Source: Steroidobacteraceae bacterium (GTDB lineage: Bacteria > Pseudomonadota > Gammaproteobacteria > Steroidobacterales > Steroidobacteraceae). From it: a stretch of 64,000 nucleotides of DNA. Below, in pieces: positions 49,596 to 61,340 of this stretch (within the stretch, counting starts at the first letter, position 1; each line of letters begins with the position of its first letter). The translations under genes were made by a program, and so were the position numbers. Under the pieces are notes generated by a model. That model had not been told where the DNA came from. It was given only the letters and a program-made list of their open reading frames with translations, and did not search any database. The DNA is taken from positions 2,169 through 66,168 of the forward strand of contig JBEKSM010000032.1 in NCBI GenBank assembly GCA_049517075.1, written 5' to 3'.

Positions 49596-50006
49596 ATGGC
49601 GTGGCTGAAAGTGATCACGGATCCATTGGAAATTACCGCTTCCGCCCTCGCGTTGATTTTTGGGGTGGCGACCGGCGCTCTGCGCCACCGGCGATCGAAA
49701 CAACTGCGGTGGTTGGCACCGCTCGCCGCGGGTTTGGCGGCGTTGTGCATCGCCGGCGGCCTGTTTTTGGCCTACCAACGCGCAGCGGATGACACTACGA
49801 AGACGACCGGGAGATCACCGGGGTCTTCCCGATCGCCTGCAGCCGAGTCGCCGCGCGAGATCAGCGTGCATGCCGACCACATCGATCAGAAGGTGACCAA
49901 CGGCGCCGCTGTCGCCGGCGTCGGCGGCAATGTCACGGTCAACGCGTCAGCGCCGCAACCGCAGCCGCAGACGAACTCAAAGCCGCCGCAGTCCAATAAC
50001 GACTAG
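49596..50006 (+). CDS. small 2-TM protein with Pro/Gln-rich tail
   Basis: ORF track, 136 aa. Helices ITASALALIFGVATGAL and WLAPLAAGLAALCIAGGLFLAY. Tail NGAAVAGVGGNVTVNASAPQPQPQTNSKPPQ. 17 nt upstream of the TPR gene. Confidence 0.45.
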   Translation: MAWLKVITDPLEITASALALIFGVATGALRHRRSKQLRWLAPLAAGLAALCIAGGLFLAYQRAADDTTKTTGRSPGSSRSPAAESPREISVHADHIDQKVTNGAAVAGVGGNVTVNASAPQPQPQTNSKPPQSNND

Positions 50007-50023: not shown

Positions 50024-51961
50024 ATGCGTTGGCTCGCTATGGTCCTTACTCTGTTGGCGCTCGATGCCGTCTCGCAGACCGTCTCCATCGGGCCCGTTCA
50101 TCAACAGGGTACCTGCACAGCGGCAGGCGTCGGCGGAAACCTCACCCTCAACTGCCCGGGACTCGATCCGTCGATCATTCGACAGCTGGAGAAACATTTT
50201 CAAAAGGAGCTCGCGCGCAGCGATATGCGAATCGAGACGATTACGAAGGAGGCCACCGAATGGCGCGATAAATATTTCGCACTGGTTGATCAACTGGCCA
50301 ACGTCATCGCTGACGAGCCGCTCAAACGAAAAGCGGAGGATGCGCTCAAGGCGGGCAAGCTGGACGAGGCGGCCGATGCGCTCGACAAGGTCTTGGCCCA
50401 CGGGGAACAGGCGGTGGACCAGCTTGCCCACAACCACTTTCAACGGGCGCTTCTCCATCAGCTGCAATTTCAGCCGCTCGAGGCGCTCGCCGAATTCAAG
50501 AAAGCGTACGATTATCGCCCAGAGCGCACTGAATACGCCGAGGCCTATGGCCGTTTGCTGTTCGACCAGCGTGACCTCGCCGCGTCGGAAAAGGTCTACG
50601 AGCAGTTGCTCGCCAATATGCGCGCACTGTCGAAAGCCGATGAGCACCAGTATTTGCCGGAGGTGGCGTTCATCCAGAACGTATTGGGAGCCATCTTCGG
50701 CAACACGCAGCGATTCGCGGACGCCGAAACGGCCTATGCAGAGTCATTGAGCATTCGCCGTGAACTGGCGAAATCCAACCCCGCGGAATTCCAGCCCTAT
50801 GTCGCACAGACCGACTGCAACCTAGGAACGCTATACACCACGCTGCATCGGCTCGCAGATGCCGACATGGAATTTGCAGAAGCATTGCAAATCTACCGAG
50901 CGGCAACCCAAGACCACCCGCAGGACCCGCAATACCAGAGCGAACTCGCCGCGACGCTCAACAGCAACGCGATTCTGCGCGAAGAGCAGCAGCGCGCCGC
51001 CGATGCCGCCAAGGATTATGCCGAGGCTCTGCAGATCTATCGCGAGTTGGCCAAGGCCAATCCCCGCGCGTATCTGGCAGACATAGCCCGGGTGCAAAAC
51101 GGCGTCGGTAACGTCGAGGAGAATCTCGAGCAGCCCGAGCAGGCGTTTGCCGCGTTCACGGAGGCCCTCGATATCTACGGTAAACTCGCAGAGTCCAATC
51201 CGTCCGCGTATGGTTTTTATCAGGCCTCGACGTTGATCAATTTGGGGAGTGCAGAAGTGCAGCTGCACAAAAGCGAAGCAGCGATTGCGCATTTCAACGC
51301 GGCGCTCAGGTTGTACCGTCAGTTGTCCCGTACCAATCCCGAGATGTATCTACCGTATGTGGCGCTCGCGTTGACCGATCTGGGATCGATCTACAACGAT
51401 GAGAATCGATTGCAGGATTCTCTCGCGGCTTACAGCGAGTCGCTGCAGATTCGACGCGACTTGGCGAAATCCAACCCGTCGGTTTATTCGAGGGACGTTG
51501 CGTACAGTCTCAACGGGCTTTACCTGCTGTATAGCAATCTGCATCGCGACAAGGAGGCGATGGAAGCGGCGGCGGAAGCGGCGGAAATCTACGGTGGGTT
51601 GGCGAAGAACGAGCCGGGTGCCTATATGCCTGAGTTGGCAAAGACCCTCGAGAACTTGGAAATGGTTTATGCCAATCTGGGTCACAGTCGTGAAACCACG
51701 GAGTGCGCAGAGCTCGCCCTGTCGATCTATCGCAACTTGGCCAAAGAGAACCCGCGCAGATATCTTCCCGACGTCGCCAAGCAATCGGAAGTTCTCGGGT
51801 ATTCTTACCATTGGCAAGGACGTAAAGATGAGGCGAAGCGAGTTTGTGCCGAGGCCACCGACGTTCTCGAGAAGCTCGCCACCGATCGCCCCGAACAGTT
51901 TGGCTCGATGCTGAAATCGGTATGCTCGTTTCTGAACGACGACAGCCCGGCTCGGCCGTGA
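50024..51961 (+). CDS. tetratricopeptide (TPR) repeat protein, about 10 tandem ~42-aa repeats
   Basis: ORF track, 645 aa. Repeated pattern (A/S)L.IYR.LAK.NP..Y.P.VA..L.NLG.LY....R...A. Hydrophobic N-terminus MRWLAMVLTLLALDAVSQ. Confidence 0.8.
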   Translation: MRWLAMVLTLLALDAVSQTVSIGPVHQQGTCTAAGVGGNLTLNCPGLDPSIIRQLEKHFQKELARSDMRIETITKEATEWRDKYFALVDQLANVIADEPLKRKAEDALKAGKLDEAADALDKVLAHGEQAVDQLAHNHFQRALLHQLQFQPLEALAEFKKAYDYRPERTEYAEAYGRLLFDQRDLAASEKVYEQLLANMRALSKADEHQYLPEVAFIQNVLGAIFGNTQRFADAETAYAESLSIRRELAKSNPAEFQPYVAQTDCNLGTLYTTLHRLADADMEFAEALQIYRAATQDHPQDPQYQSELAATLNSNAILREEQQRAADAAKDYAEALQIYRELAKANPRAYLADIARVQNGVGNVEENLEQPEQAFAAFTEALDIYGKLAESNPSAYGFYQASTLINLGSAEVQLHKSEAAIAHFNAALRLYRQLSRTNPEMYLPYVALALTDLGSIYNDENRLQDSLAAYSESLQIRRDLAKSNPSVYSRDVAYSLNGLYLLYSNLHRDKEAMEAAAEAAEIYGGLAKNEPGAYMPELAKTLENLEMVYANLGHSRETTECAELALSIYRNLAKENPRRYLPDVAKQSEVLGYSYHWQGRKDEAKRVCAEATDVLEKLATDRPEQFGSMLKSVCSFLNDDSPARP

Positions 51962-52034: not shown

Positions 52035-52958
52035 CTAGGTGAACTCTCCTGGGTTCAGAAAACGATTCTGTGTAATGAGCGGAAGATCCGGAAATAGCCC
52101 GGGAACCTGGCGAAAGCGCTCTTCTTTCAGGCGTTGAGAGACCTCCTGCAGAACGATGCCACGATCTAGGGCGGACGTCGCCGTCAGCACCTCGTTCAAG
52201 AAGAATGTGAACGCACCATGCTCCAACCCATGACTCGGAATGAATTCGTCGGAGATCTGGTCAGCACCGGATGCGGCCCAAAGAATGCACCGCTTGGGTC
52301 CGGCGGAGCCGAGCGTTGACATGATCCTTGGGTTGGCCATGTTGCCTTGCGCGCTCATGATCCGGGCCAGGACTTCCGGTGGCGGAACAAGGAAACGTAA
52401 GCTCTGAGGCAGCGATGCATCCGCTGCTCGGCTGAGCAAGGGCATTTGCATCAACGAGCCGTACTCTCGAACAATTCGCCTCATGCCGCCCGCACCGCAG
52501 GCGTCCAAGACCATTTCGATGGCGGCTCCGTCGGGAAGCAGATTCACGATGTTTCTGAGGTCTGACTCCGATATGAAAATCTCTTGGTCCCAATCCATAT
52601 CGTACGGACACAGAATTTCGAAGATCGGCTCTTCGCGCTTCGGATCATTGCTTGGCGGAGTCCGGCGATACAAAGAACCATGTCCAGAGAAGTAGAAAAG
52701 CAAGCGGTCACCCGGTGCAGCGGAGTTAACCATGCCCTTCAGCGCTGCCAGAATCGCAGATTGGATCGCGCTTCCGTCGGTTAACTCCTGGATGTCGGCC
52801 GGCACGAATCCAAAATGTTGGATCAGCAAGTCCGAAATGGAATGGACATCATTCACGCAGCCGTAGAGCCGATGCCGCTGCAGCGGCACCACATGGCCCT
52901 TGTGCCGGATATACCCGTCATAAAGATTGATGCCCACCAACACCGCTTTGCAGGCCAT
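52035..52958 (-). CDS. caspase-like peptidase (C14 / metacaspase-type fold)
   Basis: ORF track, 307 aa. AVLVGINLY...LYGCVNDVHSISDLL, catalytic His context LLFYFSGHGS, catalytic Cys context MVLDACGAGG. Confidence 0.8.
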   Translation of the reverse strand: MACKAVLVGINLYDGYIRHKGHVVPLQRHRLYGCVNDVHSISDLLIQHFGFVPADIQELTDGSAIQSAILAALKGMVNSAAPGDRLLFYFSGHGSLYRRTPPSNDPKREEPIFEILCPYDMDWDQEIFISESDLRNIVNLLPDGAAIEMVLDACGAGGMRRIVREYGSLMQMPLLSRAADASLPQSLRFLVPPPEVLARIMSAQGNMANPRIMSTLGSAGPKRCILWAASGADQISDEFIPSHGLEHGAFTFFLNEVLTATSALDRGIVLQEVSQRLKEERFRQVPGLFPDLPLITQNRFLNPGEFT

Positions 52959-52967
52959 CGTTTCCCC

Positions 52968-53288
52968 TTATTCGTCGTCCGGAAAAAACAACTCCATGTA
53001 AATTTTCGGTCGATGACGCGGCTTCGGCTTCTTGTGGTAGGCAACGAGCTGAGCCGCGAGGTAGCCTGCGTCAAACCGTGATAGTGGAATTCCTGCTACG
53101 CGGTTTTCACCCTTGATCAAATTCGATTGAAGCGCCGAAAGCTGCTCTGGCGTTGCAGCATCCAGTGCCTTCGCGATGGCGGCATAGGTATCTGATTTCG
53201 CCTTCTTGACTGAGCGCGCGGTCTTTTTTGGCGGTTTGGATTTTTGTCTTTGCGGCTTCTTCTGGGCACGTGAACTGTTATCGCTCAT
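52968..53288 (-). CDS. 106-aa Lys/Arg/Pro-rich small protein (candidate substrate or partner of the adjacent radical SAM enzyme)
   Basis: ORF track. GAGGGA lies upstream of the ATG, and the ORF overlaps the radical SAM gene end by 11 nt. MSDNSSRAQKKPQRQKSKPPKKTARSVKKAKSD...AYHKKPKPRHRPKIYMELFFPDDE. Confidence 0.55.
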   Translation of the reverse strand: MSDNSSRAQKKPQRQKSKPPKKTARSVKKAKSDTYAAIAKALDAATPEQLSALQSNLIKGENRVAGIPLSRFDAGYLAAQLVAYHKKPKPRHRPKIYMELFFPDDE

Positions 53289-54312
53289 GTTCGATCCCTC
53301 GTGATTTTGTGAGACGTTGAGACGTTGATTTGCGCGTGATCAGGGTTGCGTTTGCTCTCATGGTTTTCGCAATACGCATTGCCCAGCGCCTTCGATAGGT
53401 CCTGGCACTGTCTTGCGCGAGTTTTGTCAAAACCGGATCTGACGCAATATGTGCGCATAAGTCGCAAACATCGGCGTAGGCCGACCGTAAGCGCCCTTCC
53501 TCGCCGTTCTTGATGGCATGGCGTGCGAAATGAATGGGGCCCTGCTCGCGCAGCACTTGGAACGTCGGATCGAAGTGGTAGCGATCGACCAATGCGTCCA
53601 GTGAATGATCGAAGACGTTGCCAAGCTTCAAGAGCGTCTCGAATCCGCCCGGGGTGCAACAATTGAAGGCCGCTCCATCCTCCCGGATTGTCAGTACCGC
53701 TGCTGGGCAGCGCCCTTTTGGCAACCCGGGAGCTCGAACGTAATGTTCCAACGGAAGCTCGCCGCCCTGCCTTAGGTAAGGAACCACCGGAAACGCCTGA
53801 AGCGCATCGGCGCCGACAAAATCGGCCCATCGCTGGACCACGCCTTCTTGTTCTTCGGGCGCAGAGTAGACGATCTTGAGCAAGGTGTTGATTCCGGCGG
53901 CGCGCGCGGTGGACAGGGCGCGCTTCACGCGCTCGATCGGCACAAAGCGTTGATGGTACCGGCTGGTGCTGGCTGCCAAGTGAGTCAGCCCGGCCGCACG
54001 CACGCGAGCAACGATCGATTGCGCCTTAGCGTCCGACGTCGCCCAGTAGGCGTTTGTGACGCACGTGACGGTGGCGCCGAGACCCACGCCATGAGCGATG
54101 ACCGCGACGAGTTGCTCGAGGTCGAGAAAGGCCTCGCCTCCCGACAAACCGAACATCAGTGATTCTCCGGCGCGCCGTCGCTGCGCGGCTTCGTTCATGA
54201 TGGAGAACACTTTTTGTGTTGGCAGCGATCGTCTGGCGTACGGGCCGCTGTCGGTCGCGCAGTGCGCGCATTGTGCGTTGCAGCGTTTCGTCAACAAGAG
54301 GCTGAGCTTCAT
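53278..54312 (-). CDS. radical SAM enzyme with partial SPASM/twitch C-terminal Cys motif
   Basis: ORF track, 344 aa. CNAQCAHC (CX3CX2C) at residues 11-18. GLSGGEAFL (GGE motif). C-terminal GRCPAAVLTIREDGAAFNCC (C-X11-G-X4-C) and CDLC. Confidence 0.85.
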   Translation of the reverse strand: MKLSLLLTKRCNAQCAHCATDSGPYARRSLPTQKVFSIMNEAAQRRRAGESLMFGLSGGEAFLDLEQLVAVIAHGVGLGATVTCVTNAYWATSDAKAQSIVARVRAAGLTHLAASTSRYHQRFVPIERVKRALSTARAAGINTLLKIVYSAPEEQEGVVQRWADFVGADALQAFPVVPYLRQGGELPLEHYVRAPGLPKGRCPAAVLTIREDGAAFNCCTPGGFETLLKLGNVFDHSLDALVDRYHFDPTFQVLREQGPIHFARHAIKNGEEGRLRSAYADVCDLCAHIASDPVLTKLAQDSARTYRRRWAMRIAKTMRANATLITRKSTSQRLTKSRGIEHER

Positions 54313-54324
54313 GGGCGTGGCCTG

Positions 54325-57066
54325 CTAGGTGAGTTGCGCCAAATCATCCTGCCCACGCCGCGTGCGCCAATGTGCTTTTCCATAGCGCAACGTGAATATC
54401 CGCAGCGCCTCGGTGAGCGCGGCTCTCGATGCCTCGATTTGGCCGCGTTGTTTGAGCAACAGGCCCTGCGTACGGCGCAGCTCGCCGAGAATCGGATGAT
54501 CCCTGGGCAAGCCCGGCAGACCGCTCATGTCGACACGCGCAAGCAAACCTTGTGCCTCGTCCGACTTCCCCTGCAATCGGAGGACCTCGGCGAGCCCAAT
54601 ACGAATTTGCTCGGTCAGAGGATACTCGAGACCTTTTGCGGCCTCACAACGCTCCAGTGAGCCACGCAACATCGAGGCGGCCTCCTCCAGGTGCCCCTGC
54701 GCTTGATAGGCAAGTCCGAGGAAGTAACGCACCAGCCAGGAGCCGTCCCGATCCGTGTCGTGCGGAGAGGAGGAAAGGACGTTGATCACCTCTTGCAGTA
54801 TCGTGCTCGCCTCCGCTGCTTGCCCTTCTTCCAGCTTGAGCTGACCCTGATTTCGGCGAATCTGCAATATGAAGGCGCTATTGTCCGGTACCAATTGCCG
54901 CATGCCGGCCAACGCAAGGGACAGTTCCTGCTCGGCTTCGGCGTAGCGCTCGGTCTCGCGGTAGAGGGCACCGAGATCCATGTGAACGACCTGCGCAAAC
55001 GCGCTTGAATGTCCCGGTGCTCGCTCGATTTGCGTTCGAGCACGAACCAACCATTGCTCTGCATTCGCGAAATCGGCGACGCTAAATAAGCCCGAGCCGA
55101 GCAATCGGGACAGTTGACCGTCAAAATGCGCGGCGTTCGGGAAGTAACGATCCATATCGGCGGAGAGCGATCGCAGCTCCTCGACTTCGCGTATCCAATC
55201 GCCCTGCTGATATTGCCCGAGGGCCGATCTGAAGCGCAGCTGCAGCACCGCGTCGTTTGCCTCGCCGTATTGCCGGCGGCCTGCGACGAGCGCCCTCTCG
55301 GCGTGGGCAACCAGCAACTTGGTTTGCTCCGGCGTATGGTGGAATCCGAGCAGTTGCGCCAGGATGCTGAGGCCTTCCGAGGAACCGACACCCTTGGTCG
55401 ATTCATACAGTTCAAGCGCTCGATTGAGCTGGTCATCCACCTCCGGCAATTCCAACGCCATGTAGGACGCGCCAACCGCGGCATGAATCTCTGCCGCAAC
55501 GTCCGGCGCATCTCGAAAACGTGTGTCGATCTGCGCCGCGCCGGCGTCGAGCACCTCTTTGATCGTGAGGTCGCGTACCGCGCGTTTCGATAGATCGATG
55601 GATCCAAACAGATCCTTACTCAGGAAGCCGGTGACCGCGCGTGTCGCTTCTGCGGCTTGTTCGGCACGGCGTTGTGCTTGCCGCGCCTTGAAATACAATG
55701 AAGTGCTGACTATCAGTCCCACGCACAAGGCCGCGAACGCCAGTATCAAGCCGAATCGGCGCGCCTGCGCGCGTTCCAACACACGCCGCGCCCGTTCGGC
55801 CCGCGCCTGTGCCTCGCGGTCCGCGATCAGCTGGCGCCGACGCTCGTCCAATGTCCGCAAGCGCCGCGCCAGAGCCGCCGCATCACCCAAGCGCTCCGCC
55901 GGATTGCCTTCGGCCATGAGCGCGATGTCCTCGCGCAACAACTCATCGTCGATGCCGCGTTCCCACCCCGGCGACATGACTTTGTGAAAGTCCCCGGCCA
56001 GGAACTGATAGAGAATGATGCCGAGGGCATAAATATCGCTCTTTACCGTGAATGGCTGACCGGCCAATATCTCCGGAGCCAAGTACAACGGGGTGCCTGA
56101 GCTCATCTCCGGCGTCGCGATCGTCTTGGTGAATCCAAGACGGGTGATCCCCAAGGCCTCGAGCCGATTGAAATCGAGCACGCCGCCACTGCCAAAATCC
56201 GCCAATACGATATCGATCGAGTTGCCCGGCAATGGCTTGACCAAAACGTTGGACGGCTTCAGATCCTTGTGCAAGACCCCAACGGAGTGTACGGCACCCA
56301 AGGCCTCGGCAATCTTGGCAACGACCTCCAAGCGATCGGACACCGACATGCCGAAGATGCCGCCACGAACCGCGACCCAGTCGACGAGGCTGCCTCCCGC
56401 GATGAATTCTGCCTCGACAAAATAGGGCAGCTGCTCGAGATTCCAGTCGAGCAGCTTCACAACGCGAGCGTTGTCACCGACCGTGTCATGGATGACCCTG
56501 AACAAGGTGATTTCGCGCTTCAGTGCGACCAACGCCCTTTCTTCTAATGCAAACTTGAAGACGCGCTGCTCGCCGGTCTTGTCGTGACGAGCGCGCCAGG
56601 CTTCGCCGTGCCCGCCTCCACCCAGCCGTTCGACCAGGCTCCAGAGGGGGCGTGCGGGAGGATGCATCCCGGCACAAATATCGAAGCGCACCGGCTCCGC
56701 CGCCGCCGTGGTTTCCACACGAACCGGCGCAACGAAGCGATACCCAAAACCATAGGAAGTCTTGATGATCTCCTGGTTATCATCGACCAGGACATCTCGA
56801 ATCCTACCGATGCACTTGGTGAGCACCGTCTCGCTGAGAATGCGGCCCGGCCACACACCGGCCAGTAGCTCATCCTTGGTACACACCTCACCGGCATGCT
56901 GCAATAGATACATCAGAACTTCGAGCGGCTTACGCTCGAGTTCTGCGTCGACGCCATCCACGAATAACTCATGGGTGCGTTCGTCTAAGACGGAACGCCC
57001 GAAATGCCAGCGCCGCCAAGTCCTGTCAGCGCTCGATGACGTCGCAGTGCTTGCGTGTACGTTCAT
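54325..57066 (-). CDS. winged-helix (CadC/OmpR-type) - Ser/Thr protein kinase - TM - TPR-like sensor protein
   Basis: ORF track, 913 aa. wHTH ERKPLEVLMYLLQHAGEVCTKDELLAGVWPG...GYRF. Kinase motifs LGGGGHGEAW, VFKF, HKDLKPSNVL, ADFGSG, YLAPE. TM FGLILAFAALCVGLIVSTSLYF. About 430 aa of helical-repeat C-terminus. Confidence 0.85.
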   Translation of the reverse strand: MNVHASTATSSSADRTWRRWHFGRSVLDERTHELFVDGVDAELERKPLEVLMYLLQHAGEVCTKDELLAGVWPGRILSETVLTKCIGRIRDVLVDDNQEIIKTSYGFGYRFVAPVRVETTAAAEPVRFDICAGMHPPARPLWSLVERLGGGGHGEAWRARHDKTGEQRVFKFALEERALVALKREITLFRVIHDTVGDNARVVKLLDWNLEQLPYFVEAEFIAGGSLVDWVAVRGGIFGMSVSDRLEVVAKIAEALGAVHSVGVLHKDLKPSNVLVKPLPGNSIDIVLADFGSGGVLDFNRLEALGITRLGFTKTIATPEMSSGTPLYLAPEILAGQPFTVKSDIYALGIILYQFLAGDFHKVMSPGWERGIDDELLREDIALMAEGNPAERLGDAAALARRLRTLDERRRQLIADREAQARAERARRVLERAQARRFGLILAFAALCVGLIVSTSLYFKARQAQRRAEQAAEATRAVTGFLSKDLFGSIDLSKRAVRDLTIKEVLDAGAAQIDTRFRDAPDVAAEIHAAVGASYMALELPEVDDQLNRALELYESTKGVGSSEGLSILAQLLGFHHTPEQTKLLVAHAERALVAGRRQYGEANDAVLQLRFRSALGQYQQGDWIREVEELRSLSADMDRYFPNAAHFDGQLSRLLGSGLFSVADFANAEQWLVRARTQIERAPGHSSAFAQVVHMDLGALYRETERYAEAEQELSLALAGMRQLVPDNSAFILQIRRNQGQLKLEEGQAAEASTILQEVINVLSSSPHDTDRDGSWLVRYFLGLAYQAQGHLEEAASMLRGSLERCEAAKGLEYPLTEQIRIGLAEVLRLQGKSDEAQGLLARVDMSGLPGLPRDHPILGELRRTQGLLLKQRGQIEASRAALTEALRIFTLRYGKAHWRTRRGQDDLAQLT

Positions 57067-57324
57067 CGGATCCCATGTCCCTGCATTTTAGCCGCGTCCC
57101 GTGCGACGTTATTTTTCCATGATGCCAGAAGCATATCCCCGGAACTACGTCCTCGGGAACGGTTTTGGTAAGGCTATAGCCCCTTTATAAATCAATGTCT
57201 TGAAATATTCATTTTCTTTCCCTGAGTTTTTCAGCCTGCCGTCAGGATTTTCAACCTGCGCCTACCTACGTTATTGGCCAGCCGGGGCAAGAAGTTCCGG
57301 CACGAAAACGACGGAGGGGTGCAA

Positions 57325-58536
57325 ATGCCTACACAGACACAATCCCAGAAGACGTTCTGCAAGTACGTACTCTTAAGCCTGTGCGCATTAAGTATGGCCG
57401 GTTGCCTGCGCCCCTACCGAAACTCCGTTTTCGATCCGCCGACCGCGCAATTCCCCGGAATCATCAGCCAGTGGGGCGGGACATCGGGCTCCAACATCCG
57501 TGTTTTGTTCGTCCATGGCATGTGCTCTCACACGGAAGCGAATTGGATAACCGCCGGCTGGGACGTCGTCATCAAAGGGTACTTCCCGGCGGAGACGATG
57601 ACCGAAGCCGCACATTCCACGGTCGGCCAAGTTCAAATCGTCGACCATGACTATCAGATCGGCCCGAACAAGCTCGCCGGCCGTTTCCTGATTTGGTCAC
57701 CACTGACCACGGCCGACAAGGCAAGGCTCAATTTTGACAATCCACCCGGTTATAGCGGGCCTCCCATCTTTACGGGCGGTCAATTCACTTGGAAACGCGC
57801 GACGCTCAATTCGGATTTGAAGTCTTCGCTGCTAAACGACTGCCTCTCAGACGCCATCATCTATGCCGGTTACCGGGGCGCCGACATTCAGACTTCGATG
57901 CAGAACGCCATTTGCGCCGCTTTGGATGGAACGTCCACGAACAACACCTGTGTATTTCCGGCCACTTACGGCCACGGCAGTCGAAAAATCGCCATCGTCA
58001 CCGAAAGCCTCGGCAGCCGCATGGTCTTCGACGCGATTTCCGCGCTCAAGCTCGAGGCGCAAGGCAGAAGCCCCGCCGCACTAGCCGCATTCGACGAAGC
58101 GGTATCGCCCATCACGCAGATCTACATGCTCGCCAACCAATTACCACTTTTCGCGCTGGCGCGACCGGCGCCGGCACCGGCCGTTGCGGGATTGGATGTC
58201 TCGGCATCCCCAACGCCTAGTATGACGACCGCACTCGGCGTGCTGTCGGAAGCCCGCGCAAGGCACCGAGCGAAGCAATCCCTTGACGCACAACGGTCCA
58301 TGGTTGAGGCGCCGCTCAGCCTGGTGGCCTTTAGCGATCCCAATGATCTGCTGAGCTATCGCATACCGCCAAACGACACCGCGATCGTCGGCAACGGCAC
58401 CACAGTCGTCAACGTCATCACGAGTAACGCGGATTCGTACTTCGGTTACGTCGAGAACCCGTACCCCGCGCATACCGCCTACAACCAGAACCCGGACGCC
58501 GTCCGATTACTGTTCGGCGGATCGATCAAGGAATGA
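57325..58536 (+). CDS. lipoprotein, possibly alpha/beta-hydrolase (lipase-like) fold
   Basis: Within ORF 57274..58536. ATG 57325 follows GGAGG. Lipobox LCALSMAGC. IRVLFVHGMCSH and IAIVTESLGSRMVFD resemble an oxyanion strand and a nucleophile elbow. Weak call. Confidence 0.45.
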   Translation: MPTQTQSQKTFCKYVLLSLCALSMAGCLRPYRNSVFDPPTAQFPGIISQWGGTSGSNIRVLFVHGMCSHTEANWITAGWDVVIKGYFPAETMTEAAHSTVGQVQIVDHDYQIGPNKLAGRFLIWSPLTTADKARLNFDNPPGYSGPPIFTGGQFTWKRATLNSDLKSSLLNDCLSDAIIYAGYRGADIQTSMQNAICAALDGTSTNNTCVFPATYGHGSRKIAIVTESLGSRMVFDAISALKLEAQGRSPAALAAFDEAVSPITQIYMLANQLPLFALARPAPAPAVAGLDVSASPTPSMTTALGVLSEARARHRAKQSLDAQRSMVEAPLSLVAFSDPNDLLSYRIPPNDTAIVGNGTTVVNVITSNADSYFGYVENPYPAHTAYNQNPDAVRLLFGGSIKE

Positions 58537-58754
58537 TCTCGATGAAGCGCGACGCAACAACGGAGGGCAAGGAGATGCTTATTTGTCGCTCGGTCGATTC
58601 CTCGATCGGAGAAAAATCGCCGCGATTCTTGATCGGGTCGGGACATTCGCCGGGCTTCCACGAAACTGGCCTTCGGCCTGGTGGCACTTCGACAACTTAG
58701 AAAACCGCGTTCCACACCGTCAAATGTTTGGATTGTTAAAAAAGGGAGCAGGAC

Positions 58755-60314
58755 ATGAGAACCTTCCGTCAATTTTCCACTTTGTTGATGTTGATGCTGA
58801 GCCACCTAGCCGGCGCACAGATCGTTGGCTCCGTGAACGTTGACGTGACGCTCGCCGTGCCCGCCCCGATGCTTTCATACGGCAGCCAAAACATGCCGCT
58901 AAAGGCCGCGAAGGTGCCTGTCATTCAAGGAAAATCTGGAAAACTCCTCGACATCAACGTCCTTGACTACAATCCGGTCTTCTACACCTATACGGTGAGC
59001 GCTGTTCAAACGCCCACTGCCTCTGCCAATGCGCTCGCCGAAATTATCCCCAAACTTCAAGCGTTCGGAAAGGCGGCGACCGGTACCCAAGCGGCGGTAA
59101 ATGCAGCCGGGCAAGGCCTGGCAGGCACGCGATGTAGCACGCGATTGAATAATGTCGATATCACTCGACTTCATGCACAACTCACATCGGCCGCGGTCGC
59201 ATTATCTGACACCCTTCCGACCCATAACACCCTTCCGGACCAATTGAAGTTGCTCGCCGCTGCTACCAGCGTCGCGACTTTGAGATCGACTGCGCAGACA
59301 GCCTATCTGACTTTAAAGTCCTCGAGCGAGGATGCCAAGGATGCTGCGAATAAGCTCAACGACTTATCCACGCTGCTTTTTCAGAGCGTTTCTGCTACCG
59401 GTCAATTCCGCGTGACTTGGTGCGATCCGGGCTCCGCGTCCGAGCGTCACTATCCAGATTTACCTGCACAACCGGCGCAGACGCTCGCGCAGATCCTCAG
59501 CGGTCTTGGGGCAATCTCGACCACCGTTCCTAACGGTGACCAAGGCGCCACACTCGCGCTCGATGAACTCGAGGAGGTGCTCGGGTTCGGCGGCGGATCC
59601 TACAAGGACTACATCGACACGTTCAATCTGTTTGCTAGTTTAGTCGTCCAGTTACAGGTCGTTGGCGTTGCAAAGATTTTGAACACTCCAGACAAGGAAT
59701 GGCCGGATTTCGCGTCGGGCCTTGATAACACGGTAACAATCAACGTGGCGGAAAATAAGTCGCTGCAGCCCCTCCTGACCAGTGTCTCTTCCGACATTTC
59801 CTCGCACGCTGGAGACTACAAGATTGACCTCAAGACCAAAGAACTTATTGATTTCTCGGTCTCTGCCGCCGCGATTTACAGCTTCGTGAAGAACCCGAGT
59901 TACAGCGCGCAAACCGCCAACGCTAAATTGACGATCATGGAGACAAACACGGATTACAACAAGCTATCCGGCGCCGTGGCACTCAATATGACCCCGGACA
60001 AATGGGATTCATATTACGTTCGTCCGCACCTCCAGGTAGGCCTCGTTCCTGACTCCAGCAAAACGGCCGTCTTCCTCGGTCTTGGCTTCTCCGCCGGATC
60101 ACCAGGATCGAAATCCAGCTCCACTTCTGGCTCCTCCAAACAGTCGAGTTCATCTTCGCAGTTGGACTTTAACATTGGCGCGATCTACCAGAAGACGACC
60201 GAGTTGGGCGCGGGCCTGGCCGTTGGACAAACCGTCGCGACAACGCAGGACCTGAAAACCGACACGGCATACAAAGTGGGCCTCTATCTTGGCATTGGCT
60301 ACAGTCTCAAGTAG
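58755..60314 (+). CDS. secreted protein of unknown function with Ser-rich linker and beta-strand-like C-terminus
   Basis: ORF track, 519 aa. Signal MRTFRQFSTLLMLMLSHLAGAQ. Helical Ala/Thr/Leu-rich middle. Linker SPGSKSSSTSGSSKQSSSSSQ. Alternating-hydrophobic end ...AYKVGLYLGIGYSLK. Confidence 0.55.
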   Translation: MRTFRQFSTLLMLMLSHLAGAQIVGSVNVDVTLAVPAPMLSYGSQNMPLKAAKVPVIQGKSGKLLDINVLDYNPVFYTYTVSAVQTPTASANALAEIIPKLQAFGKAATGTQAAVNAAGQGLAGTRCSTRLNNVDITRLHAQLTSAAVALSDTLPTHNTLPDQLKLLAAATSVATLRSTAQTAYLTLKSSSEDAKDAANKLNDLSTLLFQSVSATGQFRVTWCDPGSASERHYPDLPAQPAQTLAQILSGLGAISTTVPNGDQGATLALDELEEVLGFGGGSYKDYIDTFNLFASLVVQLQVVGVAKILNTPDKEWPDFASGLDNTVTINVAENKSLQPLLTSVSSDISSHAGDYKIDLKTKELIDFSVSAAAIYSFVKNPSYSAQTANAKLTIMETNTDYNKLSGAVALNMTPDKWDSYYVRPHLQVGLVPDSSKTAVFLGLGFSAGSPGSKSSSTSGSSKQSSSSSQLDFNIGAIYQKTTELGAGLAVGQTVATTQDLKTDTAYKVGLYLGIGYSLK

Positions 60315-60323
60315 GGCCAGGAA

Positions 60324-61340
60324 ATGACGATCTTTTCCAGACCGACCGCTCGAGCGACCCTTGGGTGCCTACTGCTCTGGGTTATCCATATGAGTTGTCA
60401 CGCCGGCGATCCAAGCGCCCCCGCCGCGCCAACAAGCGAAATCGCGGCCTCGGGCACACCCCCTGTTGGTACCGTATTCCAATCGGTGCTCGATTTGAAT
60501 CAAAAGCCGGGGCCATTTGTCCCCCAGCTGCGGAATGGTGTCGATGCCAATTCCACGGATTGGCCGGTATCATTTTTTGCCAGTTGGAAAGGTGCGGGGG
60601 CATTTGTCGGGTGTACCGCCGCCCTGGTCGGTGCTGAGGTGCTGTTGACAGCGGCACACTGTGTACCGGCGGATCATACCTTGTCATTTCAATTTGGGAT
60701 TACGACATATTCGTCCGATTGCGACTTAAACACTGACTATCTGCGCGCGAATCCGGACGCCTCCGCTGATTTTGCGCTCTGCCTGCTTCGCACGCCATTC
60801 GCGCTGCCGGCCGGATATCGCTTCGAGACAATCGCCACTCCGACGCTCGACTCAGTGATTGGCATTTCCCTCGTATTGACCGGCTATGGGTGTACCGACA
60901 ACCTCGTGAACGTGGGGATACCCGATGGCAAGTACCGCATTGGCGTCAACTCCATCATTCAAACCTCCAATAGCCCGGCGCCGCAACCTCCGTTCTCGGC
61001 CGCATACTATCGGCCGAGCGAATTGAACAATCTTTTGACCGGCAATGCCGGTGCAAACATTTGTCCTGGCGATAGCGGCGGGCCCGCGTTTCAGATTGTC
61101 GCCGGTCCAGAACAAGGTCAGCAATATCCGAATCGACTCTTGATCGGTGTCAATTCGCGCGTGGTATACGCGGACGCAAGTCACTTGTTCTGGGGGCCGT
61201 CTCTGATTTCAGCGACGGGTGGCCCGTCGTTCCGAGCGTGGGCAATTGCCTGGGCCAATGGAAAAAACGGTCAGAAAAAGACAGTTGCGATTTGTGGCCT
61301 CGCCGGAGCGCCTGCACACTGCCGAGGAAGCGGCGCGTGA
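60324..61340 (+). CDS. secreted trypsin-like serine protease (S1 family)
   Basis: ORF track, 338 aa. Signal peptide. Catalytic triad contexts LTAAHCV, ADFALCLL, CPGDSGGPAF. Confidence 0.8.
   Translation: MTIFSRPTARATLGCLLLWVIHMSCHAGDPSAPAAPTSEIAASGTPPVGTVFQSVLDLNQKPGPFVPQLRNGVDANSTDWPVSFFASWKGAGAFVGCTAALVGAEVLLTAAHCVPADHTLSFQFGITTYSSDCDLNTDYLRANPDASADFALCLLRTPFALPAGYRFETIATPTLDSVIGISLVLTGYGCTDNLVNVGIPDGKYRIGVNSIIQTSNSPAPQPPFSAAYYRPSELNNLLTGNAGANICPGDSGGPAFQIVAGPEQGQQYPNRLLIGVNSRVVYADASHLFWGPSLISATGGPSFRAWAIAWANGKNGQKKTVAICGLAGAPAHCRGSGA

Follow-up and report, generated by a model that had tools for sequence, protein, structure and literature searches.

A candidate operon for a ribosomally made, radical SAM-modified peptide with a kinase-TPR regulator and a metacaspase-type peptidase in a Steroidobacteraceae bacterium

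Here, we analyzed a 64,000-nucleotide (nt) stretch of DNA from a Steroidobacteraceae bacterium (GenBank assembly GCA_049517075.1, contig JBEKSM010000032.1, positions 2,169 to 66,168 of the forward strand), referred to below as the window. The subject is a cluster of four genes that may direct the synthesis of a RiPP, a peptide made by ribosomes and modified after translation. A preliminary description, made from the sequence without database searches, had proposed a four-gene system composed of a sensor kinase, a radical S-adenosylmethionine (rSAM) enzyme, a lysine-rich protein, and a caspase-like peptidase. The four open reading frames (ORFs), of 913, 344, 106, and 307 amino acids (aa), were verified on the minus strand, with the coordinates and spacing that it had given. 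The genes and the region upstream of them are as follows.

54325..57066, minus strand: gene for a 913-aa protein with a winged helix-turn-helix (wHTH) domain, a Hanks Ser/Thr kinase, a transmembrane helix, and a TPR region; proposed sensor/regulator (Pfam, synteny)
53278..54312, minus strand: EpeE/YydG-like rSAM gene, 344 aa; proposed peptide epimerase (NCBIfam, PDB sequence, and fold matches)
52968..53288, minus strand: small gene, 106 aa; proposed precursor peptide (homologues, substitution rates, AlphaFold2 [AF2] model)
52035..52958, minus strand: metacaspase-type C14 peptidase gene, 307 aa; proposed leader peptidase (PF00656, PDB matches)
57067..57273, minus strand: intergenic region between the kinase gene and a divergent 420-aa ORF; presumed promoter/operator

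The genes are closely packed, with a 12-nt gap between the kinase and rSAM genes, an 11-nt overlap between the rSAM gene and the small ORF, and a 9-nt gap between the small ORF and the caspase gene. Shine-Dalgarno-like sequences are found 5' of the ATG of the small ORF (GAGGGA) and of the caspase gene (GGGGAA). The G+C fraction is 0.517 in the small gene, 0.561 in the caspase gene, 0.596 in the rSAM gene, and 0.605 in the kinase gene, compared with a window mean of 0.610. Thus, the earlier impression that the three downstream genes are AT-rich held for the small and caspase genes but not for the rSAM gene. The upstream region (57067..57273) shares blocks with the upstream regions of two related loci, L170 and L087. 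A search for the sigma-70 consensus upstream of the kinase gene gave no match, and no operator motif is claimed, with just two independent upstream sequences available for comparison. Rfam, tRNA, and repeat scans around the module revealed no RNA element, tRNA, or bounding repeats.

The second gene was confirmed as an rSAM gene by Pfam (Radical_SAM, 4.3e-9). In NCBIfam, residues 3 to 304 matched positions 3 to 306 of the 309-position model TIGR04078, rSAM_yydG (1.2e-32, 113.6 bits), while all other rSAM families scored 30 bits or less. YydG/EpeE provided the sole sequence matches in the PDB (3e-21, with rSAM residues 3 to 289 aligned). For the fold comparison, we used the AF2 prediction for a family member that shares 47% identity (mean predicted local distance difference test [pLDDT] of 85, above 90 across the enzyme). 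In Foldseek, EpeE took the top nine places, with E values of about 1e-16 and target-normalized template-modeling (TM) scores of 0.81 to 0.85, followed by BlsE (2e-9, TM 0.54) and then by PqqE, SkfB, and anSME.

All 29 family members retain the CX3CX2C cysteines (C11, C15, and C18) and G58-G59-E60, and likewise C202, C218, C283, and C286. The auxiliary-cluster motif reads C202-X10-G213-X4-C218, which corrects the X11 spacing of the preliminary description. In EpeE, the hydrogen-atom donor is Cys223 (PMC5682303, PMC13012085). The corresponding residue of the window enzyme is C219, and Cys is present at this position in 26 of the 29 members. By analogy with EpeE, the chemistry would most likely be L-to-D epimerization. 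The enzyme had previously been linked to anSME, as a radical counterpart of FGE. This link fails because anSME (E value of 1e-6, TM of about 0.5) is a far poorer structural match than EpeE; moreover, the window rSAM has no Pfam match to the SPASM domain PF13186 and no sulfatase neighbor in the window. An anSME relationship was therefore rejected.

The 106-aa ORF is a real gene, because homologues exist and the ratio of nonsynonymous to synonymous substitution rates (dN/dS) against L170 is 0.31. The corresponding ratios of the three enzymes are 0.09 to 0.23, so the small gene is under purifying selection but changes more quickly than they do. When 1.84 billion representatives were searched exhaustively with HMMER, only eight relatives of the window protein were recovered, all standalone and 83 to 114 aa long. 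The N terminus is strongly basic, with 12 Lys/Arg in the first 33 residues. In the AF2 model, aa 1 to 30 and 86 to 106 are disordered and flank three helices at aa 31 to 85 (pLDDT 80 to 89). The parts of the protein that follow its N-terminal segment are listed below.

53034..53198, minus strand: conserved helical leader-like region, aa 31 to 85, with the invariant motif G-I/V-x-L-S...A-G-x-L; identity 0.43
53004..53033, minus strand: basic cluster HKKPKPRHRPK, aa 85 to 95 (the range starts at K86), with the proposed cleavage site at Lys95
52971..53003, minus strand: hypervariable C-terminal tail IYMELFFPDDE, aa 96 to 106; proposed core peptide

Among ten sequences of the window's kind (type A), pairwise identity averages 0.43 across the helical region, 0.15 in the tail, and 0.15 to 0.17 at the termini. 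The tail is 7 to 12 aa long among the caspase-linked relatives examined. The window protein shows the generic features of a precursor: a conserved leader, a conserved junction, a hypervariable tail, and a gene that overlaps that of the maturase by 11 nt.

In other loci of the family (L005, L010, L011, L012, L015/16, L027, and L095), the small ORFs are of a second type (type B) and match models of NHLP-clan RiPP precursors. The matches to NF038399 range from 2e-11 to 5e-7, one of them above the curated cutoff, and those to TIGR04509 and TIGR03793 are weaker. In addition, two relatives encode in-frame rSAM-precursor fusions: P0022 (450 aa; Fontimonas sp. SYSU GA230001, L003 8001-9353) and P0029 (454 aa; a metagenome relative). 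Both run from an EpeE-like rSAM through a Lys-rich linker, disordered in AF2, to an NHLP-like segment and a short C-terminal tail. The fused segment carries the motif FRxxLLxxPxxAAxxxGL common to type B and was assigned by this motif, not by a profile scan. All 11 type A sequences have the Ser of the leader motif (aa 70 of the window protein), and Ser or Thr occupies the equivalent site in eight of nine type B sequences; this residue could be a phosphorylation site for the adjoining kinase.

Related loci were collected by exact look-ups and pattern scans of genomes and metagenomes, combined with a tblastn/ORF census. About 34 close rSAM homologues were found (identity 44 to 100%), mostly in Steroidobacteraceae and Nevskiales (Nevskia, Hydrocarboniphaga, Solimonas, Sinimarinibacterium, Fontimonas, Panacagrimonas, and Oceanococcus), with single cases in Verrucomicrobiia and Alsobacter. 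Of 30 rSAM genes with at least 2.7 kb of upstream DNA, 28 had the wHTH-kinase-TPR gene immediately 5' in the same orientation, the exceptions being L013 and the second paralogue in L005. A small, fast-evolving ORF of highly variable sequence follows the rSAM gene in most loci. Further downstream, 7 of 33 loci have a C14 caspase gene and 10 have a PF00144 (beta-lactamase/PBP-fold) gene, and the two do not occur together; in other loci, PAP2 proteins, heme peroxidases, TonB-dependent receptors, or a B12-rSAM are found. Of 34 more distant full-length YydG-like rSAM loci (22 to 32% identity), not one had the kinase, caspase, or PF00144 gene in its vicinity.

With the kinase adjacent, the small ORF frequent, and the downstream gene varied, the conserved unit is kinase, rSAM, and small ORF, and the fourth gene is exchangeable. 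Thus, the four genes originally proposed as one system are real and co-oriented, but the conserved core comprises three of them, and the caspase is kept only within one sub-clade of the family.

The PF00144 proteins belong to the PBP/DD-peptidase/D-peptidase hydrolase group, with alkaline D-peptidase and R61 DD-peptidase among the matches; from family membership alone, they would suit a substrate containing D-residues. L005 (6135-13036) contains two convergent, paralogous EpeE-like rSAM genes. One follows the kinase gene and precedes an 87-aa NHLP-type ORF; the other, encoding P0027, follows a PF00144 gene, and its product has CG in place of the CC pair and thus lacks the Cys223 equivalent. 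PAP2-domain proteins (309 to 427 aa) are encoded 3' of the rSAM gene in L014 (7972-9255), L094 (7997-9124), and L023 (8364-9293). In L014 and L094, the PAP2 gene comes directly after the rSAM gene, and a small ORF was not detected; it is here, too, that a kinase head 75 to 85% identical to that of the window is combined with a TPR domain of only 28 to 30% identity. Similar ORFs in L096 and L098 may also encode PAP2 proteins.

Genes of the animal-heme-peroxidase family lie on the opposite strand just past the small ORF in L019 (8306-9751) and L021 (8521-10005), and a probable member is placed likewise in L157 (8317-9759). The small ORFs of L019, L020, and L157 (113 aa) form a third type, with Cys at the end and no family match. 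TonB-dependent receptor genes adjoin the cluster in three relatives (L003 11873-14074, L005 3795-6056, and L012 8322-10616) and might serve the uptake of a peptide or metal complex. In L173 (1663-3972), the place of the peptidase after a type A small ORF is taken by a 118-aa ORF and the gene for a second radical SAM protein of 769 aa. L170 (10202-12784 and flanks) carries genes for an 860-aa TIR_2 and FGE-sulfatase protein, DUF4926/DUF6883 proteins, and PIN proteins, all of them at most a few kb away from a four-gene module that is a close relative of the one in the window.

The assignment of the fourth gene to the C14 peptidases was upheld by Pfam (PF00656, 5.4e-15; 56.1 bits versus a cutoff of 21.4). 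Its best PDB matches are the metacaspases AtMC9 (9e-16), AtMC4, Mca1, and TbMCA2. The catalytic dyad is H93/C154, and the His noted earlier is thus present. In TbMCA2, the S1 pocket is formed by Cys92, Asp95, Ser156, and Asp211 (PMC4357240). The window counterparts C34, D37, S91, and D152 were matched by motif, not by residue-level alignment, and together with the dyad they are consistent with Lys/Arg specificity at P1.

The homologues of this peptidase form a tight clade (42 to 100% identity), followed by a sharp drop to generic metacaspases at no more than 34%. Besides the window, the clade is represented in L001, L087, L088, L167, L169, L170, L171, and one contig without DNA. All members with a readable context follow a small ORF, plus the rSAM and kinase genes where the contig extends that far. 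The nearest outgroup is P0055, with 31% identity; its gene belongs to an unrelated locus of phage-like character (L168 1-12966), in an array with PARP, PTH2, Thg1, PRPP-synthase-like, and metallophosphatase genes.

At the aligned junction of the small proteins, all of the precursors examined whose link to a caspase is confirmed, those of the window and seven other loci, have Lys followed by Ile or Val, as does a further, probable case. The junctions and tails are given below.

Window: RHRPK / IYMELFFPDDE
L087 and L170 (identical small proteins): RRRRPK / IYLELFLVDN
L169: GPRPK / IMGEMMARR
L167: SHPK / VPTPQQTPHVSG
L001: GRKK / IEYDHIT
L088: RRKK / IELDHILFSLS
L171: RWPK / IIPVQMF
L172 (probable case; the next gene only begins like a caspase gene): CPK / VVPIVRLFNPPKS

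Type A loci without the caspase do not have Lys-Ile/Val: L004, which is PF00144-linked, has Lys-Ala; L173 has Lys-Leu; and L007, L089, and L090 have no basic site. Because the sequences are related, this co-occurrence is a pattern and not a statistical proof.

The first gene encodes the domains that the preliminary description had recognized (Trans_reg_C, 2.5e-13; Pkinase, 5.6e-27; TPR_12, 4.7e-15). The motifs quoted there (GGGGHG, VFKF, HKDLKPSN, DFG, and APE) are intact in the translation, and the single transmembrane helix and TPR-like region were confirmed.

56734..56946, minus strand: OmpR/CadC-type winged-helix DNA-binding domain, aa 41 to 111 (PF00486, 2.5e-13; CadC/HilA/PhoB-type NCBIfam matches)
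55837..56649, minus strand: Hanks-type kinase domain, about aa 140 to 410 (PF00069, 5.6e-27)
55690..55752, minus strand: single transmembrane helix, about aa 439 to 459 (Kyte-Doolittle maximum of 2.32, the sole hydrophobic segment)
54328..55656, minus strand: TPR-rich C-terminal domain, aa 471 to 913, periplasmic by topology (TPR_12 and related matches)

The transmembrane helix is kept at aa 433 to 479 in six orthologues. The TPR region is placed in the periplasm because the wHTH domain must be cytoplasmic and there is one transmembrane helix. Domain-wise identities to the window protein revealed mosaicism. For the wHTH, kinase, and TPR domains, respectively, they are 77, 85, and 28% in L094 and 77, 75, and 30% in L014, and the rSAMs of these two loci are 44 to 45% identical to that of the window. 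In loci with type A precursors, TPR identity is 52 to 78%. Across 15 loci, whose sequences are related and not independent, the identities of the TPR domain and of the rSAM are correlated (r = 0.95), and they remain so when the kinase domain is controlled for (partial r = 0.92); the kinase domain contributes nothing beyond the TPR domain (partial r = 0.02). Allowing for phylogenetic non-independence, the TPR domain, rSAM, and peptide appear to behave as one cassette attached to a wHTH-kinase head that is better conserved.

Homology, synteny, and conservation patterns together suggest that the operon probably makes a RiPP and couples it to its own transmembrane sensor-regulator. A RiPP-like pathway was one of two hypotheses in the preliminary description, and it is the best-supported reading: an rSAM-dependent pathway in which the protease is of an unusual class, the kinase-TPR partner is obligate, and relatives have enzyme-precursor fusions. 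It is favored by the EpeE/YydG-like rSAM, the NHLP-clan ORFs of sister loci, and the Lys-Ile/Val junction that accompanies a metacaspase-type peptidase. The 106-aa protein would be the precursor, with the three-helix region (aa 31 to 85) as a leader that recruits the rSAM. The enzyme would then take the C-alpha hydrogen from one or more residues of the tail (I96 to E106), and Cys219 would give a hydrogen back on the opposite face to produce one or more D-residues. Cleavage after Lys95 by the cytoplasmic metacaspase-type peptidase would free an 11-residue peptide. Control of the operon would fall to the wHTH-kinase-transmembrane-TPR protein. The periplasmic TPR domain, which is matched to the rSAM/peptide cassette, may respond to the product or to an effect of the product on the envelope, and the signal would pass via the cytoplasmic kinase to the DNA-binding domain.

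A number of results weigh against this reading, and some of them favor other explanations. For the enzyme, the score of 113.6 bits does not reach the TIGR04078 equivalog cutoff of 300 bits, the donor Cys is absent in 3 of 29 family members, and the proposed proton-relay residue of EpeE, Asp210, corresponds to Val206 at a position that varies across the family. On its score and the unconserved Asp210, yet with a full-length match and the donor Cys, the enzyme is to be regarded, as far as sequence can tell, as a distant EpeE-type relative and not as an equivalog. The same deviations would fit a RiPP operon with other rSAM chemistry, in which abstraction of a C-alpha or C-beta hydrogen leads to desaturation or to cross-linking between aromatic and aliphatic residues within IYMELFFPDDE. 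Tyr and Phe are frequent in this tail, and the cross-linking SPASM/twitch enzymes SkfB, PqqE, and SuiB are among the weaker fold matches. However, such chemistry is unlikely, since most members, the window protein included, keep the donor Cys, EpeE is nearest by a wide margin in both sequence and fold, and the tails lack the fixed aromatic or Cys pattern that a cross-linking enzyme needs.

For the small protein, no Pfam or NCBIfam match was found at E values up to 10, and none to the NHLP-clan leader models. An hhalign comparison of type A with type B gave a probability of 1.7%, with only a 19-column GIxLS motif aligned, and a search of the predicted fold against the PDB gave nothing better than E 5.5. 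Homology of the type A protein to NHLP leaders is thus not established and is not claimed. In the AF2 model of a natural fusion, moreover, the tail is not docked in the active site (pLDDT below 50).

The lack of matches to precursor families would also suit a small protein that is no substrate at all. It might instead serve the rSAM as an adaptor or scaffold subunit, or be a basic protein that binds nucleic acids, and the rSAM would then modify another target, for example the caspase or kinase-TPR protein. With its 106 aa and folded core, the protein is large for a precursor, its N terminus is strongly basic, and an in-frame fusion to the rSAM would be expected equally of an enzyme subunit. 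We consider this quite improbable, because the positional equivalents in sister loci are NHLP-clan precursors, and a hypervariable tail behind a conserved cleavage-like junction would be unexpected of a scaffold. As for length and basicity, NHLP/proteusin leaders are themselves long and structured (PMC10858898), and the basic N-terminal segment takes the form of a disordered linker in the fusion.

For the RiPP pathway as a whole, three further points count on the negative side. Neither a transporter gene nor an immunity gene is part of the operon. RiPP leader proteases were reviewed in 2023 without mention of a caspase, C14, or beta-lactamase-fold enzyme, and the protease given there for the epipeptides is M50 EpeP (PMC10885120). 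Finally, both the TPR/rSAM correlation and the junction pattern come from non-independent sequences.

The other hypothesis of the preliminary description was a conflict or programmed-death module. As an anti-phage system, the module would sense infection through the kinase-TPR protein and use the caspase as its effector protease, which the rSAM and small protein would license or keep in check. This reading finds some footing in the occurrence of bacterial caspases and Hanks kinases in defense systems, in PADLOC-DB v2 matches (mad6, PD-T4-6, and PglW for the kinase domain and a generic caspase match), and in the TIR-FGE-sulfatase and toxin-antitoxin genes near L170, but it is very improbable because these matches are generic, with no system-specific model for the rSAM or small protein beyond a weak viperin-type (pVip) similarity of the rSAM and nothing for the small protein, and because the caspase is dispensable across the family, being replaced by PF00144 hydrolases, PAP2 proteins, or nothing; in addition, the rSAM is of the peptide-maturase type, a periplasmic sensor domain would be odd for detecting intracellular infection, and the ORFs and Pfam matches of the window do not form a defense island.

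The RiPP pathway can be extended to a peptide-signaling circuit. In such a circuit, a 7- to 12-mer with D-residues, freed by a metacaspase-type leader peptidase, would be sensed by the periplasmic TPR domain of a one-component wHTH-Hanks-kinase receptor from the same operon. The cassettes of TPR domain, rSAM, and precursor would diversify as "pherotypes" while the kinase head is conserved, and a circuit of this kind would be undescribed in Gram-negative bacteria. This more specific proposal is distinctly unlikely.

Among known systems, epeXEPAB/yydFGHIJ of Bacillus subtilis is similar in the full-length rSAM fold, the CX3CX2C motif, the hydrogen-donor Cys, and a single, twitch-like C-terminal auxiliary cluster (PMC13012085). 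Both systems also have a short hydrophobic C-terminal core behind a leader and a protease in the operon itself. EpeX/YydF is about 49 aa long. The window precursor is much longer, at 106 aa with a folded leader, and the rSAMs share only about 20 to 25% identity, with the window enzyme under the equivalog cutoff and without a conserved Asp210. The window protease is a C14 metacaspase type rather than an M50 EpeP type. Neither an M50 protease nor an ABC transporter is found among the operon genes, where the rSAM is accompanied by the kinase, the 106-aa protein, and the C14 peptidase. Furthermore, the wHTH-kinase-TPR partner is obligate in the window family, and the hosts are Gammaproteobacteria, whereas epipeptides were described in 2026 as restricted to Bacillota (PMC13012085).

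Proteusins and other NHLP RiPPs, such as polytheonamide (PoyA, with the PoyD epimerase and the PoyH protease), resemble the window system in their long, structured-leader precursors, and sister loci place NHLP-clan precursors beside an orthologous rSAM. D-residues introduced by an rSAM and leader removal by a cysteine protease, as proposed for the window, would be further likenesses, and a B12-rSAM occurs in one relative of the window locus. In contrast to proteusins, the window rSAM is EpeE-type and not PoyD-type (no TIGR04517 match), the leader has no detectable NHLP homology, and the protease is C14, not C1A or C39. The fusions P0022 and P0029 recall the OphMA-type borosins (PMC8429565), in which a precursor segment is joined to the C terminus of the modifying enzyme; that enzyme is an N-methyltransferase and not an rSAM. 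In the window itself, the two genes are separate and overlapping.

The nearest regulatory analogy may be the control of streptococcal RaS-RiPP operons by Rgg/SHP, an HTH-TPR system (PMC13361665). As with RRNPP HTH-TPR receptors, a DNA-binding regulator with a TPR domain of the peptide-binding type stands beside an rSAM-RiPP operon (PMC13361665, PMC9389541), and the TPR domain of the window family co-diverges with the peptide cassette. The window regulator differs in that it spans the membrane of a Gram-negative cell, with a Hanks kinase between wHTH and TPR and with the TPR domain outside the cytoplasm, where peptide binding is hypothetical. Like metacaspases/orthocaspases (C14B), the peptidase has a His-Cys dyad and the motifs GCxND, SGHG, and DxC, and a basic P1 is expected. 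It is distinguished by its compactness (307 aa, no extra domains) and by a clade found only 3' of an rSAM and small-ORF pair, and its proposed role as a dedicated leader peptidase is undescribed in the sources searched.

The statement that no characterized system has this composition was borne out by the literature searched. Full texts contained nothing relevant on this gene combination or on the kinase architecture, although subscription journals may hold an earlier account. If the proposed pathway is correct, EpeE-type rSAM peptide chemistry reaches from Bacillota into the Gammaproteobacteria (Nevskiales and Steroidobacterales). The RiPP leader peptidases would come to include the C14 metacaspase fold and possibly hydrolases of the PBP/D-peptidase fold, and bacterial "caspases" would gain a non-death function. 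It would also define a regulator architecture (wHTH, Hanks kinase, transmembrane helix, and TPR) whose sensor co-evolves with a peptide cassette, which makes the receptor-ligand hypothesis testable. For structural work, the fusions of rSAM and precursor would provide a single-chain system. The family is a small, environmental one, and the impact would be mechanistic and conceptual more than broad.

Finally, the surroundings of the operon in the window were examined. Three plus-strand genes at 57274-61340 point away from it. They encode proteins of 420 and 519 aa without a Pfam match, the former also without an NCBIfam match, and then a 338-aa trypsin-like serine peptidase. On the other side lie two adjoining plus-strand ORFs, one at 49596-50006 and one at 50024-51961 that encodes a secreted 645-aa TPR protein. 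A specific kinship of this TPR protein with the TPR domain of the kinase was considered and rejected, as the similarity is that of generic repeats only. The two ORFs share a 30-nt direct repeat of 80% identity (49914-49943 and 50123-50152), which encodes a common GVGGN(V/L)T(V/L)N motif in both.

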